Of a DNA stretch of 64,000 nt, positions 323 to 13,519 are shown one piece after another. Both the position numbers and the translations under genes were made by a program. The DNA is from Rhodobiaceae bacterium (GTDB taxonomy: Bacteria; Pseudomonadota; Alphaproteobacteria; Rhizobiales; NORP267), in NCBI GenBank assembly GCA_020441905.1, contig JAGRLG010000015.1, forward strand, positions 765 through 64,764, read 5' to 3'. The notes under the pieces were generated by a model. That model was given only the letters and a program-made list of their open reading frames with translations. It was not told where the DNA came from and did not search any database. Position 1 is the first letter of the stretch. Every line of letters begins with the position of its first letter.

Positions 323-353
323 GTCGGCGCACCCGCGGCCAAGGTTATAGATT

Positions 354-404
354 TGTAACTTCTTCGTAATGGTGGTGTGACAGCTGGAGTGTCTTCTCCG
401 TGTC
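354..404 (+). promoter_or_regulatory. Phased direct-repeat array (candidate OmpR-family response-regulator box) upstream of the Met-rich protein gene
   Basis: Hexamers TGTAAC(354), CGTAAT(365), TGTGAC(376), AGTGTC(388) and CGTGTC(399) are spaced 11, 11, 12 and 11 bp. The array ends ~75-120 bp upstream of ATG 477. A closely similar triple repeat sits at 3104-3131. Confidence 0.4.
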
Positions 405-476
405 TGGAGCGGGGCGCGCCTCCGCCCATTCAGTTCGACACCCCACGGCAACATGCCATTTCACGGAGAAACACCC

Positions 477-740
477 ATGTCACGACCGCTCACCGCAATC
501 GCCCTTTCTTTCGCCATGTTGATGTCCGGTTCCGCCCTGGCCCTTGCCCAGGACACGATGAAGAAGGACGAAATGAAAAAGGACACCATGGAAAACACCG
601 AGATGAAGAAGGACGGTGACACCATGGCCAAGGACGGAACGATGGCCAAGGAAGAGGGAATGAAGAAGGACGAGGGAATGAAGGACGACAAGATGATGAA
701 GGATGAGGGGATGAAAAAGGAAGAGGGCATGAAGAAGTAG
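477..740 (+). CDS. Secreted methionine-rich pentapeptide (M-x-K-D/E-x) repeat protein, 87 aa
   Basis: ATG 477 is preceded by GGAGA. There is a 24-aa Sec-type signal (…SGSALALA|QD). The 63-aa mature part has 12 Met, the rest being K/D/E/T/G/A, with no Cys, His or aromatics. It resembles proteins named 'pentapeptide MXKDX repeat protein'. Confidence 0.75.
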   Translation: MSRPLTAIALSFAMLMSGSALALAQDTMKKDEMKKDTMENTEMKKDGDTMAKDGTMAKEEGMKKDEGMKDDKMMKDEGMKKEEGMKK

Positions 741-756
741 CGGCGCCTTTCGCCCA

Positions 757-806
757 TGAAGAGGGGTACAACCGGCAAAGGCGGTTGCACCCCTCCCCTC
801 TTTTGG
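757..806 (+). terminator. Rho-independent terminator after the Met-rich protein gene
   Basis: Stem AGGGGTACAACCG (762-774) pairs with CGGTTGCACCCCT (782-794), 12 of 13 bp. It is followed by CCCCTCTTTTGG with a T-run at 800-804. Confidence 0.6.
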
Positions 807-820
807 TGTTCAAGACTCCC

Positions 821-1522
821 ATGAGCCGCAAGGTCCTGATCATCGAGGACGACCCCGACATCGCCGCCCTGGTGGCGATGCATCTGAAAGACATTGATTG
901 CGAGGGCGAGATCTTCGCCAATGGCCGCGCCGGGCTTGGCGCCTTTCAGGCGCGCAAATTCGAGCTGGTGGTGCTCGACCTGAACCTGCCCGGGCTGGAC
1001 GGGCTGTCGATCTGCCGCGAGATCCGCTCCACGGGCGATTATGTGCCGATCCTGATCCTGACCGCCAAGTCGTCCGAACTCGACCGCGTGCTGGGGCTGG
1101 AGATCGGCGCCGACGACTATCTGACCAAGCCGTTTTCGATCTCCGAGCTGATGGCCCGCATCAAGGCGCTGCTGCGCCGGGTCGAGGCACTGGCGCAAAA
1201 AGCGGACAAGGCGCAGGCCAGGACCATAATCGAGCATGGCGGACTCAAGCTGGACGCCGCCAGGCACACGGTCAGCATCGACGGCCGGGCGGTGGACCTG
1301 ACGGCGCGCGAATTCGAGTTGCTTCACCATTTCGCCAGCCATCCCGGGCAGGTCTTCAGCCGCGCCCAGTTGCTGGACCAGGTGTGGGGCTATAACCACG
1401 ACGGCTACGAGCACACCGTCAATACCCATATCAACCGCCTGCGCTCCAAGATCGAGGCCGATCCGGCCAGCCCGCGCCACATCCTGACCGTCTGGGGTGT
1501 CGGCTACAAATTCGCCGACTGA
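821..1522 (+). CDS. OmpR/PhoB-family response regulator (receiver + winged-helix)
   Basis: MSRKVLIIEDDPDIA..., receiver Asp context LVVLDLNLPGLDG, and C-terminal ...LTVWGVGYKF. I prefer ATG 821 to the TTG 785 of the ORF track. Confidence 0.9.
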   Translation: MSRKVLIIEDDPDIAALVAMHLKDIDCEGEIFANGRAGLGAFQARKFELVVLDLNLPGLDGLSICREIRSTGDYVPILILTAKSSELDRVLGLEIGADDYLTKPFSISELMARIKALLRRVEALAQKADKAQARTIIEHGGLKLDAARHTVSIDGRAVDLTAREFELLHHFASHPGQVFSRAQLLDQVWGYNHDGYEHTVNTHINRLRSKIEADPASPRHILTVWGVGYKFAD

Positions 1523-1531
1523 GGCCGGGCC

Positions 1532-2998
1532 ATGTTCCGCACCCTCTACGCCAAGCTCGCCACCGGCCTGGCACTGTTGCTGGTGGCGATCGGCCTGCTC
1601 TATGCGGTGATCTCCACGACCGCCACGCGCCACGCGCTGCAGGAGCTGAACCAGCAGCTCAATCGCAACCTGGCGCAGACCCTGGTCGCCGATCGCGACC
1701 TGGTGCGCGAGGGCCGGCTCAACGAGGAGGCGCTCAAGGAAACCTTCAATCTCTATATGGACATCAATCCGGGCATCGAGATCTATCTGCTCGATCTGGA
1801 CGGCAATATCCTGTCGTTCTCGGCCGACCCGGCAAAAATAAAGCGCAAGAGGGTGTCGCTGGCGCCGATCCGGGCCTTCCTGACCATGGAACACCCCTAT
1901 CCGCTGCTCGGCGACGATCCGCGCAGCCATGATCGGCAGAAGGCGTTTTCGGTAACCCCGGTGCCCTCGGCGGGCAATGCCAATGGCTATCTCTATGTGG
2001 TGCTGCGGGGCGAACAGTTCGATTCGGCGGAAAACATGGTGCGCGACAGTTTTTTTGTGCGCATGAGCGGCTTTGCCGTGGCCATCAGCCTTGGCGTCGG
2101 CCTGCTGGCGGGCCTTGTCGCCTTCCGCCTGCTGACCAGGCGGCTGCAAAGGCTGGCCGGTGCCATGGAGGCCTTCGAGCAAGGCGGTTTTACCAATGTC
2201 CCGGCGGGCGCGGCAGGAGAGGCCGGCAAGGGCGATGAAATCGACCGGCTCGGACATTCCTTCCAGGCCATGGCGGCGCGGATCGGCGACCAGATCGAGC
2301 AGCTCAAGGGCCAGGATGAGCTGCGGCGGCGGCTGGTGGCGCAGATCTCACACGATCTGCGCACGCCGCTGGCGGCGATGCGGGGCTATGTCGAATCGCT
2401 GCAAATGAAGGGCGACGCGCTGAGCGCGGAGCAGCGCGCCGAATTCCTCGACGCGGCGCTGCGGCAGGGGCAGCAATTGTCGCACATGGTGGCGGAACTG
2501 TTCGAGCTGGCCAGCCTGGACGCCCGCGAGCGCATGCCGGAGCGCATCGCCTTCGCCCCGGCGGAGCTTGCCCATGATGTCGCCCAGAAATACCGCCTGC
2601 GGGCGGAAAAGGCAGGAATTTCAATCGAGGTTCGCAGCCACGACGCCTTGCCTTTCGTGCGCGGCGATATCGGCATGACGGAGCGGGTGTTCGACAACCT
2701 GCTCGACAATGCGATCGGCCACACGCCGGAAGGCGGCCGCATCGAAATCGCGCTGGCGGTGGCCGGCGGCGGTGTCGAGACGAGGGTCTGCAACAGCGGA
2801 GCTGCGATCGGCGACGAGGATCTCGCCCATCTGTTCGAGCCGTTTTACCGCGGCGAAGGCGGCGCGCCGGGGCGGCGCCATGCCGGGCTCGGCCTTGCCA
2901 TCGCCCGGCGCATCATGGAATTGCAGGGCGGCGACATAAGGGCAGAGAACGTGGCCAACCAGGGCGTCGCCTTCACATTCACTCTGCCGCTTGACTAG
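1532..2998 (+). CDS. Sensor histidine kinase (2 TM, periplasmic domain, HAMP, HisKA, HATPase_c)
   Basis: H-box ISHDLRTPLAAM, N-box DNLLDNAIGHT and G-boxes GLGLAIARRI. It starts 10 nt after the regulator's stop. Confidence 0.9.
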   Translation: MFRTLYAKLATGLALLLVAIGLLYAVISTTATRHALQELNQQLNRNLAQTLVADRDLVREGRLNEEALKETFNLYMDINPGIEIYLLDLDGNILSFSADPAKIKRKRVSLAPIRAFLTMEHPYPLLGDDPRSHDRQKAFSVTPVPSAGNANGYLYVVLRGEQFDSAENMVRDSFFVRMSGFAVAISLGVGLLAGLVAFRLLTRRLQRLAGAMEAFEQGGFTNVPAGAAGEAGKGDEIDRLGHSFQAMAARIGDQIEQLKGQDELRRRLVAQISHDLRTPLAAMRGYVESLQMKGDALSAEQRAEFLDAALRQGQQLSHMVAELFELASLDARERMPERIAFAPAELAHDVAQKYRLRAEKAGISIEVRSHDALPFVRGDIGMTERVFDNLLDNAIGHTPEGGRIEIALAVAGGGVETRVCNSGAAIGDEDLAHLFEPFYRGEGGAPGRRHAGLGLAIARRIMELQGGDIRAENVANQGVAFTFTLPLD

Positions 2999-3041
2999 CG
3001 GCTGCCCGGCCACTCTGCCGCTGGACTAGCGGCTGCCCGGC
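2980..3041. repeat. 31-bp tandem duplication spanning the kinase stop codon
   Basis: cactctgccgcttgactagcggctgcccggc (2980-3010) is followed directly by cactctgccgctggactagcggctgcccggc (3011-3041), with 1 mismatch. Confidence 0.9.
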
Positions 3042-3103
3042 GGCAAGGCCGCAGCGCCAATCGAAACACCCCGGCCGCGCCCAAATCGGGGCCGTTAGAA
3101 AAT

Positions 3104-3155
3104 TGTGATACCGTCGTGACGACGGTGTGAGGGCGCCGCACCATATCCTTGTGAC
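3104..3155 (+). promoter_or_regulatory. Phased direct repeats / palindrome upstream of msrAB (candidate response-regulator box)
   Basis: TGTGAT(3104), CGTGAC(3115) and TGTGAG(3126) are spaced 11 bp, with the same T/C/T flank pattern as 354-381. A further TGTGAC lies at 3150. The array overlaps the 15-nt palindrome CCGTCGT-G-ACGACGG (3111-3125). Confidence 0.4.
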
Positions 3156-3209
3156 ACAGGATGCGGCCGGCATGTGGCTGGCCGCAAGGACAAGGCAAGG
3201 AACCGAACG

Positions 3210-4319
3210 ATGAAGAAATTTCTCCTTATGGTCCTGGCGCTCATCGCTGCCGGAGGCATCTATTCGCTCCAGGCCCAGCAGAACGGCGCGGCCGAAGGCG
3301 GCCCGATGGCGAAACAAGGCGGACTGGCGGTGGCGACCTTTGCCGCCGGCTGCTTCTGGTGCGCGGAGTCCGGCTTTGAAAAGGTGCCGGGCGTGCGCGA
3401 TGTCGTATCCGGCTATAGCGGCGGCGACGAGCCCAACCCGACCTACAAGCAAGTCTCCTCGGGCACCACCGGGCACACCGAGAGCGTGCAGATCCGCTAC
3501 GACCCCCAGGTCATCACCTATGAAGGCTTGCTCCAGGCGTTGTGGCGGATTTCCAACCCGACCGACAGCGCCGGCCAATATGTCGATCGCGGACGCCAAT
3601 ACCGGCCGGCGATTTTCTATCGCACCGAGGCCGAAAAACAGGCGGCCGAGAAGAGCCGCGAGGAACTCGACCGCTCGGGGCGTTTTGACAAGCCGGTGAC
3701 GATCGAGATCACCCGGTTCAAGAGCTTCTATCCGGCCGAGGACTATCACCAGGACTACGCCAGCAAGAATCCCATCCGCTACCGCTTCTACACCCGAAAT
3801 TCCGGGCGCCCGGCCTATCAGGAGAAGTATTGGGGCAAGGACCTGAAGGTGGACTATTCCAAGTACCGGCCCACCGGCGCGCGCTACACGCGGCCGAGCC
3901 AGGAAGATCTGCGCGGCAAGCTGACCGACCTGCAATATGACGTGACGCAGAACGAAGGCACCGAGCGCCCCTTCGAGAATCCCTATTGGAACGAGAAGCG
4001 CGCCGGCATTTATGTCGACATCGTTTCCGGCGAACCGCTGTTTTCTTCGAAGGACAAGTTCGATTCCGGAACCGGCTGGCCGAGCTTCACGCGGCCGCTG
4101 GTGGCGGAGAATATCGTCACGCGCGAGGACCGGGGCCTGTTCTCGGTGCGTACCGAGGTGCGCAGCCGGTATGGCAACTCCCATCTCGGGCACGTCTTCG
4201 ATGATGGCCCGGCACCGACCGGCCTGCGCTACTGTATCAACTCGGCGGCGCTGCGTTTCATCCCGGAAGAAAAGCTAGTTGCCGAGGGCTATGGCGACTA
4301 CGTCAACCGGGGCAGCTGA
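3210..4319 (+). CDS. msrAB: Exported bifunctional methionine sulfoxide reductase MsrA-MsrB fusion
   Basis: N-terminal signal or anchor [22 protein letters not shown]. MsrA motif GCFWCAE. MsrB motifs GTGWPSF and GLRYCINS. I prefer ATG 3210 to 3174. Confidence 0.9.
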
Positions 4320-4474
4320 CGGGACGGTTTTCAGCCTGCGGAATTGCCGTTCTGACAGGAACAAAATCTTCCCCTAACGTAAGCTTTTATCTGCAATGCT
4401 TGACCTTTGGGGAAGTTACAGAAACAGGTTGCATAGTCCATAATTTTGCGGCTTTGTTCCGGGCCAGCCAACGT

Positions 4475-4507
4475 CCCCCCGCGCCAGCGAATGCCCGGCG
4501 CGGGGGG
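4475..4507 (+). other. Strong GC hairpin just upstream of the ligase gene
   Basis: ccccccgcgcc (4475-4485) pairs perfectly with ggcgcgggggg (4497-4507), an 11-bp stem with an 11-nt loop. No T-run follows. Function unknown. Confidence 0.5.
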
Positions 4508-4527
4508 CGAGCCTGGACAGGGAGCGC

Positions 4528-6066
4528 ATGTCGGAGAGCCTGTTTCACGCCTTCCAGGAAGCCAATCCGGGGCCAGGCCGGATCTTTCTGACCACAGCTG
4601 AGGGGCGCCAGCTCAGCTATGGCGCTCTATTCGGCGGCGCGCTGCGCTACGCGGCAGCCCTCGCCAGCCTCGGCGCCCAGCCCGGCGAGCGCGTCGCGGT
4701 TCAAGGCGAGAAAAGCGTCGAGGGATTGCTGCTCTATCTTGGCTGCCTTGCCACCGGCGCCGTCTATCTGCCGCTCAATCCCGCCTACACGCCGGCCGAG
4801 GTCGAATATTTTCTCTCCGATGCCCAGCCGCGCATTCTGATTTGCGACCCGGCGCGGTTTTCCGTTCTCGCCGATGTGGCGGCGCGCTGCGGCCTGGCCC
4901 ATATCGAAACCCTTGGCGCGGATGGTAGCGGCACCTTGCCCGAAATAGTCGCCGGGCATGACAGCGACTTTGCGCCCAGGGCGCGACATGGCGGCGATCT
5001 GGCGGCGATCCTCTACACCTCCGGCACCACCGGGCGCGCCAAGGGCGCAATCCTCAGCCACGGCAATCTGGCGAGCAATGCCCGGACCCTTGCCGGACTG
5101 TGGCGGATGAACCGGGACGACGTTCTCCTTCACGCCCTGCCGATCTTTCACACCCACGGATTGTTCGTCGCCCTGTCCACGGTATTGCTGGCCGGGGCGT
5201 CGATGATCTGGCTGCCGAAATTCGACGCCGGCGCGGTCGTCGCCGCGCTGGCGCGCTCCACGGTGCTGATGGGAGTGCCGACCTTCTATTCGCGGCTGCT
5301 GGCGCGCGCCGATTTCAGCCGCGAAACCTGCGCCAATATGCGCCTTTTCATTTCCGGCTCGGCGCCGCTGTCGGCGCAGACCCACCAGGAATTCCAAGCG
5401 CGCAGCGGCCATGCCATCCTCGAGCGCTACGGCATGACCGAAACCGGCATGAACACATCCAATCCCTATGAGGGCGAGCGCAAGCCCGGCACGGTTGGTC
5501 ACCCCCTGCCCGGCGTGGACTTGCGCATCGCCGACCCGGACAGCGGCGCGCCGCTTGGCCCCGGCGAGATCGGCGTCATCGAGGTGCGGGGTCCGAATGT
5601 CACGCCGGGCTATTGGCGCAACGCGGAAAAAACGCGCGAGGCCTTCCGCGACGATGGCTTCTTCATCACGGGCGACCTGGGGCAAATCGGCGCCGACGGC
5701 TATGTTTCGATCGTCGGCCGCGACAAGGATCTCATCATCAGCGGCGGCCTGAACGTCTATCCGGCCGAGGTCGAGGCGGCGCTCGACGCCCTGCCCGGCA
5801 TAGCCGAAAGCGCGGTGATCGGCCTGCCTCATGGCGATTTCGGCGAGGCGGTGACCGCGGTGCTGGCGGCGCGCGCCGGAAGCAAGGTGAACGGCGCCGA
5901 AATTGCCGCGGCGCTGGGCGGAAAGCTGGCCGCCTTCAAGATCCCCAAGCAGGTCATCGCCGTCGATGCTTTGCCGCGCAATGCCATGGGCAAGATCGAA
6001 AAGGCGGCGCTGCGGGAGTGCTATGCCGGTCTTTATGGCGACGGCAGCAAGGCCGCGAGCCGATAG
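4528..6066 (+). CDS. matB: Malonyl-CoA synthetase (MatB)-like AMP-dependent acyl-CoA ligase
   Basis: The N-terminus and the AMP motif (YTSGTTGRAKGA) align by eye with rhizobial MatB. No matA or matC is adjacent, so the substrate is uncertain. Confidence 0.7.
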   Translation: MSESLFHAFQEANPGPGRIFLTTAEGRQLSYGALFGGALRYAAALASLGAQPGERVAVQGEKSVEGLLLYLGCLATGAVYLPLNPAYTPAEVEYFLSDAQPRILICDPARFSVLADVAARCGLAHIETLGADGSGTLPEIVAGHDSDFAPRARHGGDLAAILYTSGTTGRAKGAILSHGNLASNARTLAGLWRMNRDDVLLHALPIFHTHGLFVALSTVLLAGASMIWLPKFDAGAVVAALARSTVLMGVPTFYSRLLARADFSRETCANMRLFISGSAPLSAQTHQEFQARSGHAILERYGMTETGMNTSNPYEGERKPGTVGHPLPGVDLRIADPDSGAPLGPGEIGVIEVRGPNVTPGYWRNAEKTREAFRDDGFFITGDLGQIGADGYVSIVGRDKDLIISGGLNVYPAEVEAALDALPGIAESAVIGLPHGDFGEAVTAVLAARAGSKVNGAEIAAALGGKLAAFKIPKQVIAVDALPRNAMGKIEKAALRECYAGLYGDGSKAASR

Positions 6067-6128
6067 GCCAGGACGGCAAGAAACACCAACGTAACACTGC
6101 ACCGGACAGGCATAGAAGGAGCGTAGAA

Positions 6129-8108
6129 ATGGACGAGCGCAAAGCGGGCGAGAAGAAGCTGAAACACCTGTTCGAGCCGGTGAAATGGGGCCGCTTCGAG
6201 ATCAAGAACCGGGTCAAATATGGCGCCTGCTGCGTCTCCAATTTCAACACCCGCGACGGCTTCATCACCCCGCGCGAACTGGCGCGCACCAAGGTCATCG
6301 CCGAGACCGGGGCCGGTATCATCACCAATCAGGGCGCCTATCCCGATCCCTTGGGCGAGGGCAAGGCCTATTTCAGCCAGGTGGCGCTGTTCGACGACAA
6401 GTTCCTGCCCCAGTTCGAGACCATCGCCCGCTATATCCACGACAATGGCGGCATGGCGATCCAGCAGATCCTTCATGCCGGGCGCTATGGCGGCATCGAT
6501 CTGGGCTATTGCATCCAGCCCTCGGTGGTGCCGCAGACCCTGCCCCATTTCCGCCCGCCGCGGGAGATCACCAAGGAGCAGATCCGCGAAACCATCAAGC
6601 AACATGCCGACGCGGCGAAACGCGCCATCAAGGCTGGCTTCGACGGCACCGAGATCACCAGCTTCATGGGCTACCTCTTGGCCAATTTCTGCTCGCCCTT
6701 CACCAACAAGCGCAACGACGAATATGGCGGGTCGGTGGAGAATCGCGGACGCTTCATGCGCGAGCTGATTTCCGAGATCAAGGAAGCCCAGGGCGACGAC
6801 TACATGCTGGTGGCACGCCTCAACGGCGCCGAACTCATGGACAAGTGGGGCGGCAACAGCGAGGACGAGTGCCTTGAGCTGATGAAGATGGCCGGCGATG
6901 CCGGCATCGACATGATCTCGGTCACCGTGGGCTGGCAGGAGGCTCCCGAATCCTCGATCGGCCGCGACGTGCCTCCCGGCCACTGGAACCGCCTGGCGGC
7001 GCGGGCCAAGAAGGAACTGCCCAATGTGCCGATCGCCTTCGGCGTGCGCCTGCCCGATCCGGTGATGGCCAATGCGTGCATCGAGAAGGGCGATTTCGAC
7101 TACTGGGAAGTGTGCCGGCCGCTGCTCGCCGACCCGCAGCTTCTGCACAAGGCGGCGGAAGACCGGCTGGAGGAGACCCGGCGCTGCATCGGTTCGCTGA
7201 ACTGCCTGTCGCGGCTGTTCCGCGACCTGCCCTATACCTGCACCATGAACCCGGCGCTGGGCCACGAGGTCGAGCCGGAATACCACATCACCCCGGCGGC
7301 GGTGAAAAAGCGCATCATGATCATCGGCGCCGGCCCTGCCGGCATGGAATGCGCGATGGCCGCCAAGCAGCGCGGCCACGAGGTCACGGTGTTCGACCGG
7401 GAAGACTCCATCGGCGGGTTGCTGCGCGGCTATGCCGCCAATGACCTCGCCAATCGCGACGATATGCTCTCGGTGGTGCGCCATTACGAGGTGATGGCCA
7501 AGAAGCTCGGAATCGAGGTCAAGCTCGGGGTCGAGGTGACGCCCAAGCTGATGCGCGACCTTCTGCACCAGTTCGATGTCGCCATCGTCGCCGCCGGGGC
7601 GCGCAACGACGAGAACATGCGCCCCAAGACCGCCGATGGCGGCGTGCTGACCGACGCCTATGAAGTGGCGCTGGGCCGCATCAAGCCGGGCAAGAAGGTG
7701 GTCGTGATCGGCGGCGGGCGCATCGGCCTGACCCTGGCCGAATCGCTGACCGACCAGGGCCATGAGGCGATCATCGTTGAAAGCTCCAAGCGGGTCGGCA
7801 ACGACGTGGCGCCGACCTGGAAGTGGCGGCACACGTCCTGGATCAAGGAACTCAAGATCCCGGTCATGACCTCGACCCGTGTCACCAGGGTGACCGCGTC
7901 CTCGGCCACCGTCGTCAATGCGGAAGGCGAGGAGAAGGAACTGGCCGCCGACATGGTGATCTATGCCGCGCCGCAAAAGCCGAACCAGGAAGTGTTCCAG
8001 GCCTTGCAATGGATGGTCGATGAGGTGCACATGATCGGCGACGCCATGGCGCCGCGCGGCATGACCAGCGCCATTCATGACGGCTACCGGCTTGGCTGCC
8101 GGATCTGA
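6129..8108 (+). CDS. 2,4-dienoyl-CoA reductase (FadH)-like NADH:flavin oxidoreductase (OYE barrel + FAD/NAD(P) domain)
   Basis: OYE-like N-terminal half, then GAGPAGMECA and VVVIGGGRIG dinucleotide folds. The Fe-S motif is degenerate (CIGSLNC...C, where FadH has CxxCxxxC...C). ATG 6129 was chosen because the 5613 start overlaps matB. Confidence 0.8.
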   Translation: MDERKAGEKKLKHLFEPVKWGRFEIKNRVKYGACCVSNFNTRDGFITPRELARTKVIAETGAGIITNQGAYPDPLGEGKAYFSQVALFDDKFLPQFETIARYIHDNGGMAIQQILHAGRYGGIDLGYCIQPSVVPQTLPHFRPPREITKEQIRETIKQHADAAKRAIKAGFDGTEITSFMGYLLANFCSPFTNKRNDEYGGSVENRGRFMRELISEIKEAQGDDYMLVARLNGAELMDKWGGNSEDECLELMKMAGDAGIDMISVTVGWQEAPESSIGRDVPPGHWNRLAARAKKELPNVPIAFGVRLPDPVMANACIEKGDFDYWEVCRPLLADPQLLHKAAEDRLEETRRCIGSLNCLSRLFRDLPYTCTMNPALGHEVEPEYHITPAAVKKRIMIIGAGPAGMECAMAAKQRGHEVTVFDREDSIGGLLRGYAANDLANRDDMLSVVRHYEVMAKKLGIEVKLGVEVTPKLMRDLLHQFDVAIVAAGARNDENMRPKTADGGVLTDAYEVALGRIKPGKKVVVIGGGRIGLTLAESLTDQGHEAIIVESSKRVGNDVAPTWKWRHTSWIKELKIPVMTSTRVTRVTASSATVVNAEGEEKELAADMVIYAAPQKPNQEVFQALQWMVDEVHMIGDAMAPRGMTSAIHDGYRLGCRI

Positions 8109-8118
8109 AGGCGGGGTG

Positions 8119-8556
8119 ATGGGCCAAACAGTGACCGATGCGGGACTTTGCGGCGCGCTTCAGCGCTGGCGGGAGATGGGGGAGGCAAGCCGCGAGGTCT
8201 TCGCCGCCCTCGAACCGGGCGCCCGCGTCGGCCTGATTTCGCAAGCGGAAATGAACCAGGCACCGGGGGCGCGGATGGTGGTGTGGCAGGCCGGTCCCGA
8301 AGGCCCGACGACCGCCCTTGCCCCCTTTGCCGGTTTTGCCGATGCGCCCGCCGACATGGTGTTCCTGGTGCCTGACGAAGCGCTGGACGAAGTTGCGGCG
8401 GCGGGGCCGGACAAGGGGCTTGGCGCGCTGGAAGGACCGGTGCGCTCGGGCGACGCCATGCTGTTCTACATCGCGCCGAAAGGCGATCTGCTGGATGCCG
8501 GCTATGAGGAATTCATGGAGCGGCTGGGCTTCGGTTTTCTCGGTGCATGCAGATAG
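8119..8556 (+). CDS. Hypothetical protein (145 aa)
   Basis: GC3-rich ORF packed tightly after the flavoenzyme gene. No family recognised. Confidence 0.5.
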   Translation: MGQTVTDAGLCGALQRWREMGEASREVFAALEPGARVGLISQAEMNQAPGARMVVWQAGPEGPTTALAPFAGFADAPADMVFLVPDEALDEVAAAGPDKGLGALEGPVRSGDAMLFYIAPKGDLLDAGYEEFMERLGFGFLGACR

Positions 8557-8586
8557 CAGGCTGATTTGCACAGGAGGGAAGAAGCC

Positions 8587-8772
8587 ATGATCTTCCGCAA
8601 TCCCGCCGGAGCGCCGGAGCTTGCCTGCGATGCCTGCGGCTGCCGCTGGTTCGACCGCCTCGACGACAAGGCGGAATGCTATGAATGCGGCGAGCCGGTG
8701 AGCGAGAAGATGGTCGAGGAATACAAGGCCGCCCTTGCGGTGTTTTACAAGGAAAAGGGCATCGAGCCTTGA
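8587..8772 (+). CDS. Small Cys4 (zinc-ribbon-like) protein, 61 aa
   Basis: CDACGC...CYEC cysteine pairs. Its stop overlaps the TTG start of the desulfurase (cTTGA). Confidence 0.5.
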   Translation: MIFRNPAGAPELACDACGCRWFDRLDDKAECYECGEPVSEKMVEEYKAALAVFYKEKGIEP

Positions 8773-9953
8773 GCGGCGGTGACAGCCAGCCGATCTATCT
8801 CGACAACGCGGCCACCACCCGCGTCGATGAGCGCGTGCTCGCCGCCATGCTGCCTTTCTTCACCGAAAAATTCGCCAATCCTTCAAGCCGCGAGCACGGG
8901 CCGGGGCGAAAGGCGGGCGGCGCCGTCGAGGCGGCGCGCGAACAGGCGGCGGCGCTGATCGGCGCCAGGCCCGGCGAGATCATCTTCACCTCGGGGGCTA
9001 CCGAATCCATCAACCTGGCGCTCAAGGGCGTTGCCTGGGCGGCGCTTGGGCAAGGCCGCCCCGCCCATATCGTCATCAGCGCCATCGAACACAATGCGGT
9101 GCGCGATTGCTGCAAGGCGCTGGAAAGACATGGCGTCGCCATCACCATCGTGCCGGTGGATGGCGAGGGCCGCGTCGATCCGGACACGGTTTCGGCGGCG
9201 CTCCATGCCGATACCGTGCTGATTTCGGTCATGGCCGCCAATAACGAGATCGGCACCGTGCAACCGGTCGCGCAAATCGCGCAGATCGCGCGGGCGCGCG
9301 GCATTCCCTTTCATTCCGACGCGACGCAGGCCGCCGGCAAGATCCCACTCGATATGGCCGCCGGCCCCGACCTGCTCTCCTTCTCGGCGCACAAGATGCA
9401 CGGCCCCAAGGGCGCCGGCGCGCTCTATATACGCAGTACCAGGCCGCGACTAGAGATCACGCCGCTGCTGCATGGCGGCGGGCAGGAAAGGGACTTGCGC
9501 CCCGGCACGCTCAATGTGCCGGCGATTGTCGGTTTCGGCGCGGCGTGCGGCCTGGCGGGAACCGGCATGGAAAGCGACATGGCGCGCGTTGCCGGACTGC
9601 GCGAGCTGCTGGAACGGAGCCTGCTGGAAGGCTGTCCCGGCGCCCGCATCAACGGCGCCGGGGCAGCGCGCCTGCCTGGCATCACCAGCCTGACGCTGCC
9701 CGGCACCGACCGCGATCTCCTGCTCGCCCGCCTGCCGGAGCTGGCGATGGCGTCCGGCTCGGCCTGCCTGTCGAGCCAGGGCAAACCATCCCACGTGCTC
9801 AGGGCCATCGGACTTGACGACGGCGCGGCGAGGGCAACCCTGCGTCTCAGCCTTGGCCGGTTCACAAGCCGCGACGAGATCGAGCGGGCGGCGCGGCTGA
9901 TCGGCGCCGAAGCGGCGGCACAAGCCCTATCGGCAAGGCGCGGCGCCAGCTGA
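8769..9953 (+). CDS. NifS/IscS-like cysteine desulfurase (class V aminotransferase)
   Basis: IYLDNAATT..., PLP-Lys context SFSAHKMHGPKGAG, and active-site loop SGSACLS. The start (TTG 8769) is uncertain. Confidence 0.85.
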   Translation: MSGGDSQPIYLDNAATTRVDERVLAAMLPFFTEKFANPSSREHGPGRKAGGAVEAAREQAAALIGARPGEIIFTSGATESINLALKGVAWAALGQGRPAHIVISAIEHNAVRDCCKALERHGVAITIVPVDGEGRVDPDTVSAALHADTVLISVMAANNEIGTVQPVAQIAQIARARGIPFHSDATQAAGKIPLDMAAGPDLLSFSAHKMHGPKGAGALYIRSTRPRLEITPLLHGGGQERDLRPGTLNVPAIVGFGAACGLAGTGMESDMARVAGLRELLERSLLEGCPGARINGAGAARLPGITSLTLPGTDRDLLLARLPELAMASGSACLSSQGKPSHVLRAIGLDDGAARATLRLSLGRFTSRDEIERAARLIGAEAAAQALSARRGAS

Positions 9954-10127
9954 TCCGCTCCTTGGCCCTTTTCAGTGGGCATCAAAAGAGCGACAATGAA
10001 ATCGTTCCACGGCACGAGGATACCGTGGGCGGCCGTCCGCGAAATCTGCGGCGCAATGCGGCGATCCGGCTTTGCGCAATGTGCGGTGACGCGGGCGCCT
10101 TCCGGTGGGGGCACCGGCAATCGTGCC

Positions 10128-10871
10128 ATGCTGAAGGAGTGGGCGATGACGCGAGCCTTGCAGCGCGGCAGATGCGCGGGCGTATTTTTCCTCGGATTGC
10201 TGCTGCTCGCCGGCTGCGCCAGCGAGCGGCGGGCGGCCTATAGCGACACCGAGAGCGCCCAGAAACGGGCAACGCTGTCGATGTATGCGGCCCAGCCCTA
10301 TGAGCCCTACCCGATCCCGGCGCTCGATGTCACCAAGATCGACCCGGCATTGCTGCGCCAGATCGTCGACTACCCGACAGCGGAGCAGACCGGCACGATT
10401 ATCGTCGATACGCCGAACCATTTTCTCTATCTCGTTCTCGGCGAGGGCAAGGCGATGCGCTATGGCATCGGCGTCGGGCGGCAGGGCTTTTCCTGGTCGG
10501 GGCGGGCACGCATCGGCGACATGCAGGCCTGGCCGAAATGGTTTCCACCGGCGGAAATGATCGACCGCCAGCCGGAACTGGAACCCTATCGCGACAACGG
10601 CATGGAGCCGGGCTTGCAGAACCCGCTCGGGGCGCGCGCGCTCTATCTCTACCAGGGCAACAAGGACACGCTGTACCGCCTCCACGGCACCAATGAACCC
10701 TGGTCGATCGGAAAGTCCCTCTCCTCGGGCTGTATTCGTCTGTTCAACCAGGACATCATCGATCTGCATGCGCGGGTCACCCTCGATGCGCCGGTGGTGG
10801 TCATTGCCGATCCCTCGACCCATATGGCGCCGGTATCCGAACGCCCCCCCGGCCCGCAGCGGCCGGCGTGA
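10128..10871 (+). CDS. L,D-transpeptidase (YkuD domain) lipoprotein
   Basis: Lipobox LLLLAGC and catalytic motif HGTNEPWSIGKSLSSGCIRL. The start is 10128 or 10146. Confidence 0.85.
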   Translation: MLKEWAMTRALQRGRCAGVFFLGLLLLAGCASERRAAYSDTESAQKRATLSMYAAQPYEPYPIPALDVTKIDPALLRQIVDYPTAEQTGTIIVDTPNHFLYLVLGEGKAMRYGIGVGRQGFSWSGRARIGDMQAWPKWFPPAEMIDRQPELEPYRDNGMEPGLQNPLGARALYLYQGNKDTLYRLHGTNEPWSIGKSLSSGCIRLFNQDIIDLHARVTLDAPVVVIADPSTHMAPVSERPPGPQRPA

Positions 10872-10901
10872 CCGCATTTCGACGCGAGGGAACCATTTGG
10901 C

Positions 10902-11744
10902 ATGGACGATTTCCTGCTGGCCCATGAAGCGGCGGTCCGCCTTGGCGCCTTCTGCCTTGTTCTCGCCGTCATGGCGCTATGGGAAGCCCTGGCGGCGAGG
11001 CGCCCCCAGGCGATTTCGCGGCGGGCGAGATGGCCGGGCAATCTTGGCATCGTCGCTATCGACACGCTGGCGCTGCGTCTGGTTTTTCCTCTTGCCGCGG
11101 CGGGCGCCGCGCTGGCCGCCGAACAGGGCGGCTGGGGCCTGTTCAACGCCATTGCCATGCCGCGCTGGATGGCCTTCGCCGCCTCGGTGGCGCTGCTCGA
11201 CCTGACGATCTATCTCCAGCATGTGCTGTTTCACGCCGTGCCGGCGCTGTGGCGGCTGCACCGCATGCACCACGCCGACCTTGAATTCGACGTCACCACG
11301 GGGCTGCGTTTTCATCCGGTGGAAATCCTGCTTTCCATGGTGATCAAGCTTGCCGTCGTCACCGCGCTCGGCGCGCCGGCGGTCGCCGTGCTGGTTTTCG
11401 AGGTGCTGCTCAACGCCACCGCCATGTTCAACCACGGCAATGTGCGCCTTCCAGTCCGCCTCGACGGCTGGCTGCGCCTCCTCGTCGTCACCCCCGACAT
11501 GCACCGCGTGCACCATTCGGCGCTGGTGCGCGAGACCAACTCCAATTTCGGCTTCAACCTGCCGTGGTGGGACCGGCTGTTCGGCACCTACCGCGCCCAG
11601 CCGCTAGCCGGCCACGCCGGCATGACCATCGGCCTTGAGCAGTTCCGCGACGCGCGCGAGCTGCGCCTCGACCGCATGCTGCTGCAACCCCTGCGAGGCG
11701 AGGCCGGGGGTGCCCCTATCAATGAAAGGGGGCCAAAGGCCTGA
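10902..11744 (+). CDS. Sterol desaturase / fatty acid hydroxylase family membrane protein
   Basis: Histidine boxes HRMHHAD and HRVHHS, plus NFGFNLPWWDRLFGTY. Confidence 0.8.
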   Translation: MDDFLLAHEAAVRLGAFCLVLAVMALWEALAARRPQAISRRARWPGNLGIVAIDTLALRLVFPLAAAGAALAAEQGGWGLFNAIAMPRWMAFAASVALLDLTIYLQHVLFHAVPALWRLHRMHHADLEFDVTTGLRFHPVEILLSMVIKLAVVTALGAPAVAVLVFEVLLNATAMFNHGNVRLPVRLDGWLRLLVVTPDMHRVHHSALVRETNSNFGFNLPWWDRLFGTYRAQPLAGHAGMTIGLEQFRDARELRLDRMLLQPLRGEAGGAPINERGPKA

Positions 11745-11788
11745 GGCAGGCGATCGGGCCGCATCGGCTTGGTGCAAGCCGGGCGGCT

Positions 11789-13519
11789 TCACCTCGCCAG
11801 AAGCGTGATCAGGAACAGCACGGTCAGGGCCAGAAACAGGGTGGCAAGCTGCCAGGCACGAACCGGATTGCGTTCGCTCAGCGCCGCCTCGGCGGAACTG
11901 CGCGATTCGGTGTCGGGGTGGCGCAGATAATAGAGAAATTCCGACAGGGCCTCGTGCCGCCTGGCGGGATCTATCGCGACGGCCTTGTGGATCGCGCTAT
12001 CCACCCATACCGGTATTTCGGGGTTGATGGCGGAAGCGGGCCGGTAGTTGAGCCGCCGCTGCTGCGCCGGGGTGCGGGTCTTGGCGACTTGCGCTCCATA
12101 GGGCAATTTCCCGGTCAGCATCTGATAGGCGATGACGCCGAGGGAAAACTGGTCCGAACGCCAGGTGCCGCTCTGGCCGAGAAAATATTCCGGCGCGCTG
12201 TATTGCGCCGTGCCGAGCAGGGCGTCGCCGCCAAGGTCGGGGGCCGCATCGAGTACGCCGGCGACCTTGGCCGAGCCGAAATCGATGATCTTCACCGTGC
12301 CGTCGCGATCGATCATGATATTTTCGGGGCGCAGGTCCTGATGCACCATTTCCTTGCGGTGAAAGGCGCGCAGTCCGACGGCGATCTGCTCGAGCAGCCC
12401 GCGGACGGTCTCAACATCGGGACGCGGGTGGTCGATCATCCATTGCGTCAGGGTCTGGCCGTCGACGAATTCGGAGACGACATAGAGATGGGTGCGGCGG
12501 CCGTCGCGGGGGAAAGTCTTCAACACATTGGCGCTGTTGAGGCGGCGCGCGATCCACTCCTCCATCATGAAGCGCTTCAGATAGGCGGCATCGCCGCGCA
12601 GATCGATCGAGGGGATCTTGATGACGGCGATCCCGCCGGTTTCCAGATCCTCGGCCAGATAGGCGTGGCTGCGGCTGCTGGCATGGATCTGGCGGATAAT
12701 CCTGAAGCCGTCGAATTCCATGCGCGCCTCGAGCAGCGGCGGCAGGGGAAGATCGGCCGCGCGCCCGAGAATTTCCTCGCCCTCGCCGTCGGGCAAGCCA
12801 TCGACGCGCAGGATCTGGATCGTCAGATTGTCCTGGCTGCCATTGGCGAGCGCTTCGCAGACGATGATTCTTGCCGCCTGATCAAGATCGTTCGCCAGTT
12901 CGCCAATGGCGCCGGCGACGAAGGGCGCCGTGACCCAGTCATAAACACCGTCGGTGGCGAGCACGAACACGTCGCCGGGGGAAAGCGGCAGCGCCCGATA
13001 GTCGATCTCGACATGCGGATTGACGCCGAGCGCGCGGCCCAGATAGCTCTGCTGCGATGAAATCTCCACCCTGTGATCGATGGTCAATTGCTCTAGCGAC
13101 TTGCCCTCAAGCCGGGAAATGCGGGAATCGCCGACATGGAACAGATGGGCCATGCGCGACTTCAGCACCAGGGCGGAAAAGGTGGTGACATATCCCTTGT
13201 CGCGGTCATGGCCGCACTGGCCGGCGCGCGATTGGGAATGGAGCCAGGAATTGACGGCATTGATCACCCTTTGCGCCGAGGTCGGCACGGTCCAGGATTC
13301 AGGCGTGCAGTAGTAGTCGGTGAGAAAACTCTTGATCGCCGATTCGGCGGCGATCCGGCTTACCGGGCTAGAAGAGATGCCGTCGGCAATGGCCACCGCC
13401 ACGCCCTTAAGGCTGAGATCGGCCCCGGTGGGGATGAGGGCGCCGTGGAAATCCTGGTTGTCCTCCTTCACTCCGGGGGAGGAAAACTGGCCGATGGATA
13501 CTGCAAGGCTGTTCGGCAT
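11789..13519 (-). CDS. Bifunctional PP2C phosphatase / Ser-Thr protein kinase, C-terminally membrane-anchored
   Basis: N-terminal PP2C (EDNQDFHG, IADGISSS, ATDGVYD). Hanks kinase (HQDLRPENIMI, DFG, APE). Single C-terminal TM (AWQLATLFLALTVLFLITLLA). Confidence 0.85.
   Translation of the reverse strand: MPNSLAVSIGQFSSPGVKEDNQDFHGALIPTGADLSLKGVAVAIADGISSSPVSRIAAESAIKSFLTDYYCTPESWTVPTSAQRVINAVNSWLHSQSRAGQCGHDRDKGYVTTFSALVLKSRMAHLFHVGDSRISRLEGKSLEQLTIDHRVEISSQQSYLGRALGVNPHVEIDYRALPLSPGDVFVLATDGVYDWVTAPFVAGAIGELANDLDQAARIIVCEALANGSQDNLTIQILRVDGLPDGEGEEILGRAADLPLPPLLEARMEFDGFRIIRQIHASSRSHAYLAEDLETGGIAVIKIPSIDLRGDAAYLKRFMMEEWIARRLNSANVLKTFPRDGRRTHLYVVSEFVDGQTLTQWMIDHPRPDVETVRGLLEQIAVGLRAFHRKEMVHQDLRPENIMIDRDGTVKIIDFGSAKVAGVLDAAPDLGGDALLGTAQYSAPEYFLGQSGTWRSDQFSLGVIAYQMLTGKLPYGAQVAKTRTPAQQRRLNYRPASAINPEIPVWVDSAIHKAVAIDPARRHEALSEFLYYLRHPDTESRSSAEAALSERNPVRAWQLATLFLALTVLFLITLLAR

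Follow-up and report, generated by a model that had tools for sequence, protein, structure and literature searches.

A methionine-rich exported protein, an OrhK/OrhR-family two-component system and an exported MsrA-MsrB fusion as a probable envelope defence unit against methionine oxidation

The locus described here comprises genes for a Met-rich protein, a response regulator, a sensor kinase and an MsrA-MsrB fusion, which are located in this order on the same strand and are accompanied by two phased repeats and a G+C-rich hairpin (Table 1). It is situated in a window of 64 kb, i.e., the whole stretch of DNA that was analysed.

Table 1. Features of the locus, with positions counted in the window.
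Feature	Positions	Strand	Details
Candidate operator 1, GGTTA-N6-TGTAA-N6-CGTAA-N6-TGTGA	343..380	+	strict pattern 354-380; PWM matches 340-372, 351-383
Gene of Met-rich MXKDX-repeat protein, predicted exported	477..740	+	87 aa; SD-like GGAGAA 7 nt 5' of ATG
G+C-rich hairpin, 13-bp stem (761-795), then CCCCUCUUUU	761..805	+	fold of 741-812
OmpR-family response regulator, OrhR family	821..1522	+	233 aa; Pfam Response_reg, Trans_reg_C; homology to OrhR
Sensor histidine kinase, OrhK family	1532..2998	+	488 aa; Pfam HAMP, HisKA, HATPase_c; homology to OrhK
31-bp tandem duplication across kinase stop codon	2980..3041	+	two copies, 97% identity; probably without function
Candidate operator 2, CGTTA-N6-TGTGA-N6-CGTGA-N6-TGTGA	3093..3130	+	strict pattern 3104-3130; PWM matches
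Bifunctional MsrA-MsrB, predicted exported	3210..4319	+	369 aa; Pfam PMSR, SelR; Sec signal peptide

In accordance with the sequence-only reading, the Met-rich protein consists of a Sec signal peptide, MSRPLTAIALSFAMLMSGSALALA, followed by QD and a mature part of 63 aa, which contains 12 Met and otherwise K, D, E, T, G, A, N, and Q alone, with neither Cys nor His. The proposed arrangement in M-x-K-D/E-x pentads is strict in the first four repeats, but thereafter the Met residues are spaced by 6-7 residues. The family TIGR02953 ('pentapeptide MXKDX repeat protein') was matched narrowly, with 41.8 bits at a cut-off of 41, and among 25 linked Met-rich proteins no more than 8 reach this model. The class is set by composition more than by homology. 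Linked sequences are extremely divergent (mean column identity 27%), Lys is absent from some of them, and composition alone is conserved. Homology searches with the low-complexity protein of the window yielded almost no matches; an identical gene was called on the metagenome contigs L001-L006.

Downstream of the Met-rich gene, the 72-nt region 741-812, which contains the hairpin, has a folding energy of -30.2 kcal/mol (z = -2.2), and an equivalent hairpin with z < -2 was found 3' of the Met-rich gene in 21 of 37 related loci. The Met-rich gene had been credited with its own terminator; the strong and conserved hairpin speaks for this, but it was not called by a consensus terminator scan. Its fold and conservation point to a probable terminator or attenuator separating the Met-rich gene from the regulator genes.

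The regulator shares 53% identity with OrhR of UPEC (E = 5e-83), and the kinase 35% identity with OrhK across 458 aa, including the periplasmic domain (E = 3e-95). An assignment of the regulator as HprR equivalog was ruled out (159.8 bits, cut-off 353). The kinase, with 3168 homologues at E <= 1e-30, is composed of TM1, a periplasmic domain of ~140 aa, TM2, and the HAMP, HisKA and HATPase_c domains; together with the Pfam domains of the regulator, this layout agrees with the proposed pair of an OmpR-type regulator and a periplasm-sensing kinase. A PDC/PAS-like fold covers about residues 62-158 of the periplasmic domain (mean pLDDT of the AlphaFold2 kinase model, 73). Conservation of the periplasmic domain is very strong, with numerous invariant positions; it is devoid of Cys and matched no solved sensor domain by sequence.

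Both TIGR00401 and TIGR00357 exceed their cut-offs in the MsrA-MsrB fusion. As had been read from the sequence, it carries GCFWC in the MsrA domain, RYCINS with the catalytic Cys in the MsrB domain, and an N-terminal signal, which reads as a Sec signal peptide with the mature part starting QQ. Signal peptides are present in all 45 linked Msr proteins examined, and since the Met-rich protein has one as well as MsrAB, both effectors are predicted to be exported. According to the alignment with solved MsrAB structures, Thr occupies the canonical position of the resolving Cys in the MsrB domain (SGTGWPSF instead of SGCGWPSF), and GTGWPSF is common to all 42 MsrB domains linked to this two-component system. 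Homologues of CcdA, DsbD, DUF1223, MsrP, and MsrQ were not found in the 64-kb window by phmmer (E <= 1), BLAST and a CxxC motif scan, which bears out the earlier remark that electron-donor genes are absent from it. In related loci, a homologue of CcdA belongs to the cluster, as does a DUF1223 protein with thioredoxin fold and CSSCP motif that is under operator control; these two are candidates for the electron donor.

Upstream of the Met-rich gene and of msrAB, ~97 bp and ~80 bp 5' of the respective start codons, four phased pentamers occur with a spacing of 11 bp in operator 1 and a like arrangement in operator 2. The pattern YGTRA-N6-YGTRA-N6-YGTRA has exactly these two matches in 64 kb (0.00 expected), and it is to these two places in the window that the regions suggested earlier for EMSA (354-404 and 3104-3155) correspond. 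In 80 related loci, 35 strict matches were obtained in 1.37 Mb, nearly all of them 5' of a Met-rich, regulator or msr gene. A scan with a position weight matrix resulted in 139 matches, 123 of which are located upstream of these three gene types, and in none in 617 kb of shuffled sequence; this matrix is circular, as it was built from sites in the very loci scored, a problem of which the strict-pattern result is free. Four-fold, 11-bp-phased direct repeats of the TGTGA type are the type of site bound by OmpR-family regulators, and we infer that both operators are candidate binding sites of the response regulator.

For a census, 62 loci with a kinase of the same family and with both flanks available were considered at species level. 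An exported Msr (MsrAB, MsrB or MsrPQ) follows the kinase directly in 43 loci, and all but two of the Msr matches in these loci have this position. A Met-rich exported protein is present in 39; both are found together in 31, and at least one of them in 51 of the 62, which substantiates the predicted co-occurrence. In detail, the Met-rich gene is combined with MsrAB, MsrB and MsrPQ in 17, 7 and 4 loci, respectively, and the Met-rich tract lies within or is fused to MsrAB in 3; 8 loci contain the Met-rich gene only, 12 Msr only, and 11 neither partner. Across Alpha- and Gammaproteobacteria the order is kept, with the Met-rich protein upstream and the exported Met-sulfoxide reductase downstream, and operator positions match those in the window. 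Judging from these gene contents, the type of reductase is interchangeable (MsrAB, Tat-exported MsrB or MsrPQ). In two genomes (L020, L032), a single ORF encodes a signal peptide and Met-rich repeats followed by the MsrA and MsrB domains, and in L117, L119 and L133-type ccdA-trx-msrAB operons, where this two-component system is lacking, exported MsrAB is accompanied by adjoining Met-rich lipoproteins. The place of the Met-rich gene is taken by that of a secreted Spond_N-like protein in 6 of 80 loci, 3 of which belong to the 11 loci with neither partner; due to these replacements and the 11 loci themselves, the regulon is not uniform. With MsrAB as the starting point, its 80 closest relatives in metagenomes mostly do not adjoin this two-component system, whose link to Msr is thus strong in one direction only.

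Taking the common operator, the conserved neighbourhood and the fusions as the basis of a functional link between the four genes, the locus is probably a self-contained unit that protects the envelope from methionine oxidation under the control of an OrhK/OrhR-family two-component system. The coupling of an exported Met-rich protein to an exported reductase under such a system, as put forward in the sequence-only reading, is thus supported by synteny, signal peptides, operator and fusions. The PDC-like domain of the kinase would sense envelope oxidative stress, with peroxide being the signal for OrhK and reactive chlorine species equally plausible at the window locus, and the kinase would phosphorylate the regulator. 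The latter may then switch on the promoter of the Met-rich gene and likewise that of msrAB. If the hairpin allowed only partial read-through into the regulator and kinase genes, positive autoregulation and a large excess of the small Met-rich protein would result. This disordered, highly charged protein would absorb oxidant and form both diastereomers of Met-sulfoxide, of which the MsrA domain would reduce the S form and the MsrB domain the R form; damaged envelope proteins might be repaired too. Reducing power of cytoplasmic origin would have to cross the membrane via a protein of the CcdA/DsbD type and reach MsrAB through a thioredoxin-fold partner in the periplasm, both encoded at other places of the genome. 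Since the usual resolving Cys is missing from the MsrB domain, a partner of the thioredoxin-fold type would have to reduce the sulfenate of this domain directly.

Alternatively, the Met-rich protein could serve mainly as a signalling partner of the kinase, i.e., as a periplasmic ligand or inhibitor and not as a bulk oxidant sink. The kinase would read its oxidation state and MsrAB would reset it, so that the Met-rich protein would be to the kinase, in redox terms, what CpxP is to CpxA. The Met-rich gene heads the regulator-kinase operon in 36 of the 62 loci, the 8 loci without a reductase nearby retain it, and the conserved, Cys-free periplasmic domain without a match among solved sensor domains is compatible with such a role as well. 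However, the 12 Msr-only loci possess the two-component system without a Met-rich gene, the Met-rich gene of UPEC belongs to the reductase operon and not to that of the regulators, and the tract is fused to MsrAB in the two genomes mentioned. Due to the conservation of the divergent Met-rich sequences in composition alone, a specific protein-protein interface fits poorly, and we consider this role unlikely.

Highly unlikely is a function in copper or silver homeostasis, with the Met-rich protein soaking up Cu(I)/Ag(I) in the periplasm in the manner of SilE, PcoE or CopM, a metal-sensing two-component system, and MsrAB repairing Met oxidised through copper. Cu(I) binding by Met-rich tracts has been published, copMRS of Synechocystis shares the gene order of small periplasmic protein, regulator and kinase (PMC4335983), and the best full-length NCBIfam match of the kinase is the heavy-metal sensor family TIGR01386, but its score of 157.9 is well below the cut-off of 292.55. 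His and Cys are absent from the Met-rich protein of the window, and the characterised homologue OrhKR is peroxide-responsive and controls an Msr system. Furthermore, the conserved neighbours of the 80 loci include no recognised copper-efflux, multicopper-oxidase or P-type ATPase family, individual annotation having covered Msr, ABC-transporter ATPase, DUF1223 and Spond_N but not the smaller clusters. A chance adjacency of independent units is hardly credible: most close metagenomic MsrAB relatives lack this two-component system and the small low-complexity protein leaves homology searches nearly empty, but both promoters share an operator absent from the rest of the window, strand, order and operator are kept in dozens of species, and fusions of MsrAB with Met-rich tracts exist.

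Considering known systems, the envelope defence unit favoured here is less novel than it had been rated in the sequence-only reading. In UPEC, the homologous, peroxide-responsive OrhKR activates c3566-c3568, encoding an MsrQP-like pair and a Met-rich peptide, and the OrhR-bound promoter carries TGTGA half-sites (PMC8550376). Thus, a two-component system controlling an exported Met-rich peptide and a periplasmic Met-sulfoxide reductase has been published. However, UPEC employs an MsrP-like molybdenum enzyme together with a cytochrome b partner, whereas the reductase of the window is an MsrAB of the thiol type. The Met-rich gene of UPEC closes the reductase operon instead of opening that of the regulators, the half-sites follow another arrangement, with no score for the UPEC promoter in the matrix from related loci, and hemolysin genes are transcribed together with the UPEC operon.

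Exported Met-rich peptides acting as hypochlorite sinks are known from Azospira suillum (MrpX with YedYZ, PMC4436054) and Brucella melitensis (BcrXQP, PMC8315932), where they are likewise combined with a periplasmic reductase, and BcrX, like the protein of the window, bears the annotation 'MXKDX repeat protein'. In contrast, these systems are controlled by ECF sigma/anti-sigma pairs (SigF/NrsF and BcrS/AbcS, respectively) and employ quinol-fed MsrPQ, not thiol-fed MsrAB. Since OrhKR and MXKDX hypochlorite sinks have been described, the functional logic is already known, and the locus is probably a cell-envelope antioxidant unit of known parts newly combined, not of a new kind. Novelty lies in the combination with an exported MsrAB of the thiol type and in how broad the OrhKR-type regulon is.

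A link between a two-component system and exported MsrAB is also on record for Fusobacterium nucleatum, where ccdA-trx-msrAB-modRS (PMC9239216) provides envelope defence by an exported MsrA-MsrB and a peroxide-responsive two-component system; ModRS is likened to the system of the window by gene linkage and role. Haemophilus influenzae possesses a periplasmic MsrA-MsrB fusion directed against envelope oxidants (PMC13488963, PMC9404787), which is controlled by an ECF sigma factor. The loci of both organisms differ from the window in carrying a CcdA and thioredoxin electron supply of their own, and a Met-rich peptide is unreported for them. In E. coli, the oxidant-responsive HprSR (YedVW) induces the periplasmic reductase MsrPQ, but HprR represents a different family, as indicated by the score given above, and HprS matches the kinase weakly (71.9 bits) and in its core only.

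The functional link between the Met-rich MXKDX protein, the two-component system and the exported MsrA-MsrB fusion (MsrAB), which the sequence-only reading had proposed for window 354-4319, is well supported at the sequence level by conserved synteny, a shared operator and gene fusions. The four-gene arrangement itself was confirmed by gene, domain and motif reading (see table), and a signal peptide is read on the N-termini of both MsrAB and the small protein, as had been suggested.

Features of the locus, its surroundings and loci collected as relatives (L-numbers)
Sequence	Feature	Position	Orientation	Remarks
Window	Operator 1, strict triple repeat	354-380	coding strand	97 bp upstream of Met-rich gene start codon
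Window	Met-rich MXKDX protein gene	477-740	same as other three genes	87 aa, Sec signal peptide
Window	Hairpin	761-795		3' of small gene; 13-bp stem
Window	Response regulator, OmpR-type	821-1522	co-oriented	Domain searches
Window	Histidine kinase	1532-2998	co-oriented	488 aa; HAMP, HisKA, HATPase_c, periplasmic loop of ~140 aa
Window	Tandem duplication	2980-3041		31 bp, 97% identical
Window	Operator 2, strict triple repeat	3104-3130	coding strand	80 bp upstream of msrAB start codon
Window	MsrA-MsrB fusion	3210-4319	co-oriented	369 aa; PMSR, SelR; motifs GCFWC, RYCINS
Window	PP2C phosphatase/Ser/Thr kinase protein	11789-13519	minus strand	576 aa
L008	Two-component homologue, msrB-dipZ-msrA	2522-8215	divergent	Burkholderia multivorans NZ_CP020399
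L010	DUF1223 protein	7647-8468
L013	DUF1223 protein	4657-5478
L020	DUF1223 protein	11549-12367
L032	DUF1223 protein	11524-12306
L038, L055, L065, L070, L076	DUF1223 protein
L011	Spond_N-like protein	1828-2580
L012	Spond_N-like protein	8326-9057
L050	Spond_N-like protein	788-1591
L054	Spond_N-like protein	7796-8590
L021, L044	Spond_N-like protein
L073, L081	Met-rich proteins with MsrPQ	about 8960-13240		Vreelandella, Halomonas relatives
L117	Met-rich lipoprotein	5309-5581		Directly upstream of exported MsrAB
L119	Met-rich lipoprotein	764-1024		Directly upstream of exported MsrAB
L133	Met-rich lipoprotein	5016-5336		Inside ccdA-[Met-rich]-trx-msrAB operon, gut metagenome
L135, L138, L139, L148	Met-rich lipoprotein			As L133
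L150	Met-rich tract fused to TlpA-like thioredoxin	1750-2397

The signal peptide of the small protein ends in SGSALALA, followed by QD, and the mature part of 63 residues contains 12 Met, the remainder being solely K, D, E, T, G, A, N, and Q. No Pfam match was obtained. With 41.8 bits (E = 7.6e-11) the protein exceeds the cut-off of 41 for NCBIfam TIGR02953 (pentapeptide MXKDX repeat protein) by a very small margin; residues 7-83 align to positions 7-77 of the 78-position profile, and the description of the class, i.e., approximately 80 aa with a signal peptide and then repeated M-x-K-D-x units, applies to it. The previously described M-x-K-D/E-x pentads are found in repeats 1-4 of the 12 Met-led repeats, but in the later ones Met occurs every 6-7 residues. 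Similarly, the terminator attributed to the small gene is represented by a G+C-rich hairpin with a weak U-tract, but was not called in a consensus terminator scan. A strong hairpin (z < -2) is located 3' of the Met-rich gene in 21 out of 37 related loci, and this conserved hairpin fits an expression of the small gene far exceeding that of the regulators.

The kinase and the regulator are homologous over their full length to OrhK and OrhR of uropathogenic Escherichia coli (UPEC), and thus the system of the window is a member of the OrhKR family. In detail, the kinase shares 35% identity with OrhK across 458 of its 488 aa, the periplasmic sensor domain included (E = 3e-95), with the common sensor motifs NP.[IV]E.Y, GDDPRS, and GYLY, and the regulator shares 53% identity with OrhR (E = 5e-83). 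Membership in HprSR (YedVW), the E. coli system for msrPQ, was rejected with a regulator score of 159.8 bits against an HprR equivalog cut-off of 353, as was membership in the heavy-metal sensor kinases of TIGR01386 (CusS/CopS/SilS), for which the kinase reached 157.9 bits compared to a subfamily cut-off of 292.55. An AlphaFold2 model of the kinase (62 homologues, mean pLDDT 73) predicts a PDC/PAS-like alpha/beta fold for the periplasmic loop. This domain is highly conserved in the kinase family, and solved structures in the PDB were matched by the kinase profile solely via the cytoplasmic kinase core, never via the sensor domain. The family comprises 3168 proteins at E <= 1e-30, the best 120 of which are 55-97% (most 57-67%) identical and essentially full-length. 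A search of plasmid DNA gave matches confined to the two-component genes. The same search revealed a more distant homologous system in Burkholderia multivorans, with a kinase of ~40% identity, which is transcribed divergently from an msrB-dipZ-msrA operon; the MsrB, DipZ, and MsrA of this operon all look exported or membrane-bound, and the annotation of the locus includes no Met-rich gene.

Exactly two copies of the pattern YGTRA-N6-YGTRA-N6-YGTRA are present in the 64 kb of the window (0.00 expected from shuffles), and a fourth phased GTTA repeat is situated 11 bp upstream of each triple repeat (343-347 and 3093-3097). OmpR-family regulators bind direct repeats at helical phasing. The phased direct repeats at both sites point to co-regulation of the Met-rich gene and msrAB and to autoregulation of the regulator operon, with the operator as predicted site of the regulator. 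In the 80 related loci 35 strict triple repeats were observed, almost all of them ahead of the Met-rich gene, ahead of the regulator gene in loci without a Met-rich gene, or between the kinase and reductase genes. A weight matrix derived from them (consensus TTGTGAT-N2-TTT-YGTGA-N6-YGTGAT) gave 139 matches, 123 of them at the same positions, and none in 617 kb of shuffled sequence. This result is partly circular since the loci scanned were also the source of the matrix, whereas the count of the strict pattern is unaffected. The promoter bound by OrhR contains TGTGA half-sites (PMC8550376). Related loci also carry the operator upstream of genes encoding DUF1223 proteins, MsrPQ, and a Spond_N-like secreted protein. 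The latter, of ~250 aa and not Met-rich, is encoded in six loci where a Met-rich gene would otherwise precede the regulator, likewise behind the operator. The 31-bp duplication extends across the kinase stop codon, and a second copy of the gene's 3' end, stop codon included, therefore lies in the intergenic stretch preceding the msrAB operator.

Searches with the small protein yielded no match on plasmids (tblastn) and a single match among 5.8 billion proteins. Since its low complexity defeats homology search, Met-rich ORFs were sought by composition in loci collected via the kinase family, one genome per species. In the resulting 80 loci, with flanks of up to 10 kb on each side, ORFs were called and searched with the window proteins and the composition filter, and the census was restricted to the 62 loci whose flanks were long enough on either side. 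In L020 and L032 the filter falsely picked a membrane protein encoded ahead of the regulator; both loci were reclassified, as their true Met-rich tract is fused to MsrAB.

A Met-rich exported protein upstream together with MsrAB downstream was observed in 17 of the 62 loci, with a stand-alone MsrB (Tat-type signal) in 7, and with MsrP-MsrQ in 4; in 3 further loci the Met-rich tract is fused to or located inside MsrAB. Eight loci contain a Met-rich gene only, 12 MsrAB or MsrB only, and 11 neither of them. Carriers of the full arrangement include Marinobacter species (L051 and L052) and Halopseudomonas (L014). Thus, a reductase is present in 43, a Met-rich element in 39, and at least one of both in 51 out of 62 loci, and the expected co-occurrence across genomes was borne out. 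Nearly all Msr matches in the 1.37 Mb of related loci are located directly after the kinase gene, and all 45 Msr proteins linked to the two-component system carry N-terminal export signals. Pfam confirmed Oxidored_molyb, Ferric_reduct, DUF1223, Spond_N, and DsbD_TM among the neighbours. Identical proteins of all four window genes are encoded on several metagenome contigs.

The linked Met-rich proteins contain 18-32% Met and few or no Cys/His. Divergence among them is high (mean column identity 27%), some lack Lys entirely, and TIGR02953 is matched by only 8 out of 25; as far as the sequences indicate, selection seems to act on composition and not on sequence. Met-rich proteins accompanying MsrPQ in L073 and L081 (Vreelandella, relatives of Halomonas) consist of D/E/S/M only, with almost no Lys, and hence the MXKDX motif is dispensable for the association with a reductase.

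Fusions and independent pairings were observed as well. In L020 and L032, a single ORF comprises a signal peptide, ~80 aa of M-x-K-K-D-type repeats, MsrA, and MsrB. In case of L057, an Asp/Met-rich tract lies between the neighbouring coding regions of MsrA and MsrB, which are called as two overlapping ORFs and contain stop codons if translated across both. Met-rich lipoproteins, some with MKKDD repeats, adjoin exported MsrAB in loci lacking an OrhKR-type system, either directly upstream or inside ccdA- and trx-containing operons, and the pairing therefore recurs independently of the regulator. A Met-rich tract is also fused to a TlpA-like thioredoxin in L150. In a separate metagenome scan anchored on MsrAB, whose exact-peptide patterns are biased against the FAGGCFWC variant of the linked MsrABs, the link was not reproduced: most close MsrAB relatives do not adjoin this two-component system and only L090 clearly does; consequently, the association is strong from the kinase side only.

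MsrAB matches TIGR00401 with 189.8 bits (cut-off 108.1) and TIGR00357 with 197.7 bits (cut-off 113.05), and 22 N-terminal residues followed by QQ read as its signal peptide. The PilB-type Trx-MsrA-MsrB architecture (NF010625) was rejected with a score of 329.6 bits (cut-off 522); only profile positions 203-518 are covered, which means that MsrAB is devoid of an N-terminal thioredoxin domain. The motif GCFWC is present in all 31 linked MsrA domains. In all 42 linked MsrB domains, Thr occupies the position of the resolving Cys (GTGWPSF compared to GCGWPSF of solved MsrB structures). Due to this replacement, the MsrB sulfenate probably requires direct reduction by a thioredoxin-fold partner.

In agreement with the sequence-only reading, homologue searches of the 64-kb window found no DsbD, CcdA or thioredoxin-like gene, nor genes for DUF1223, MsrP or MsrQ, and the electron donor of this genome must lie elsewhere. 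A periplasmic MsrAB with dedicated CcdA/Trx supply of the H. influenzae or Fusobacterium type was rejected, as ccdA and trx are absent from the window. In related loci the only candidates for electron donors are DUF1223 (about 9 loci) and CcdA (L020 and L032). Proteins of the DUF1223 family have a thioredoxin fold and a CSSCP motif (PMC3091736). Secreted members adjoin the exported Msr gene, often directly after the operator, as candidate periplasmic reductants of these Msr enzymes.

Met-rich proteins, periplasmic reductases and their regulators are known in other combinations. BcrX of Brucella melitensis is an MXKDX repeat protein whose gene shares a transcript with those of MsrQP homologues and is induced by HOCl under the control of an ECF sigma factor (PMC8315932). 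It has been described as homologous to MrpX of Azospira, the prototype of the sacrificial Met-rich peptides (PMC8315932, PMC4436054). As with MrpX/BcrX, the exported Met-rich peptide of the window is linked to and apparently co-regulated with a periplasmic Msr, judging from the common operator, conserved synteny and fusions of the Met-rich tract to MsrAB, but the reductase is MsrAB instead of MsrP. OrhK/OrhR of UPEC respond to peroxide by activation of c3566-c3568, encoding an MsrQ-like protein, an MsrP-like protein, and a Met-rich peptide (PMC8550376); by comparison, the conserved operator predicted in the window precedes both the Met-rich gene and msrAB. Exported MsrAB is known from H. influenzae, Neisseria, and Fusobacterium, where in the latter it is linked to the two-component system ModRS, ccdA, and trx (PMC9239216, PMC13488963). 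In the literature no paper was found on a Met-rich peptide paired with MsrAB or on a wider OrhKR family.

Of the earlier proposal that a sacrificial Met-rich protein and its recycling reductase follow a known logic with different parts, what is new is that an MXKDX protein and an OrhKR-type system are combined with an exported MsrAB of the thiol type; the logic and the families of the Met-rich protein and the regulator have already been published. According to the survey, the predicted regulon is broad and modular, has a conserved operator, and spans many environmental Alpha- and Gammaproteobacteria. The published idea of a Met-rich sink plus periplasmic reductase appears modular, with one conserved two-component system and one operator serving a Met-rich protein plus any of three reductase types (MsrAB, MsrB, MsrPQ). 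OrhKR, so far known solely from a uropathogenic E. coli island, is widened to a broad family, and the operator is a concrete prediction of where the regulator binds. The reduction of an exported MsrAB of the thiol type that has no thioredoxin of its own becomes a sharper question, with DUF1223 and CcdA as candidates.

It is a speculation, and in our estimate an improbable one, that the kinase reads the oxidation state of the Met-rich protein, the sink being the sensor ligand, and not the oxidant directly, and, separately, that DUF1223 is the missing periplasmic reductant for exported MsrA/MsrB lacking both a fused thioredoxin domain and the MsrB resolving cysteine. If true, either would represent a new mechanism in envelope redox biology. 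Unrelated to the locus, a protein with PP2C phosphatase and Ser/Thr kinase domains is encoded further downstream in the window, according to gene calls on the identical contigs L001 and L002.
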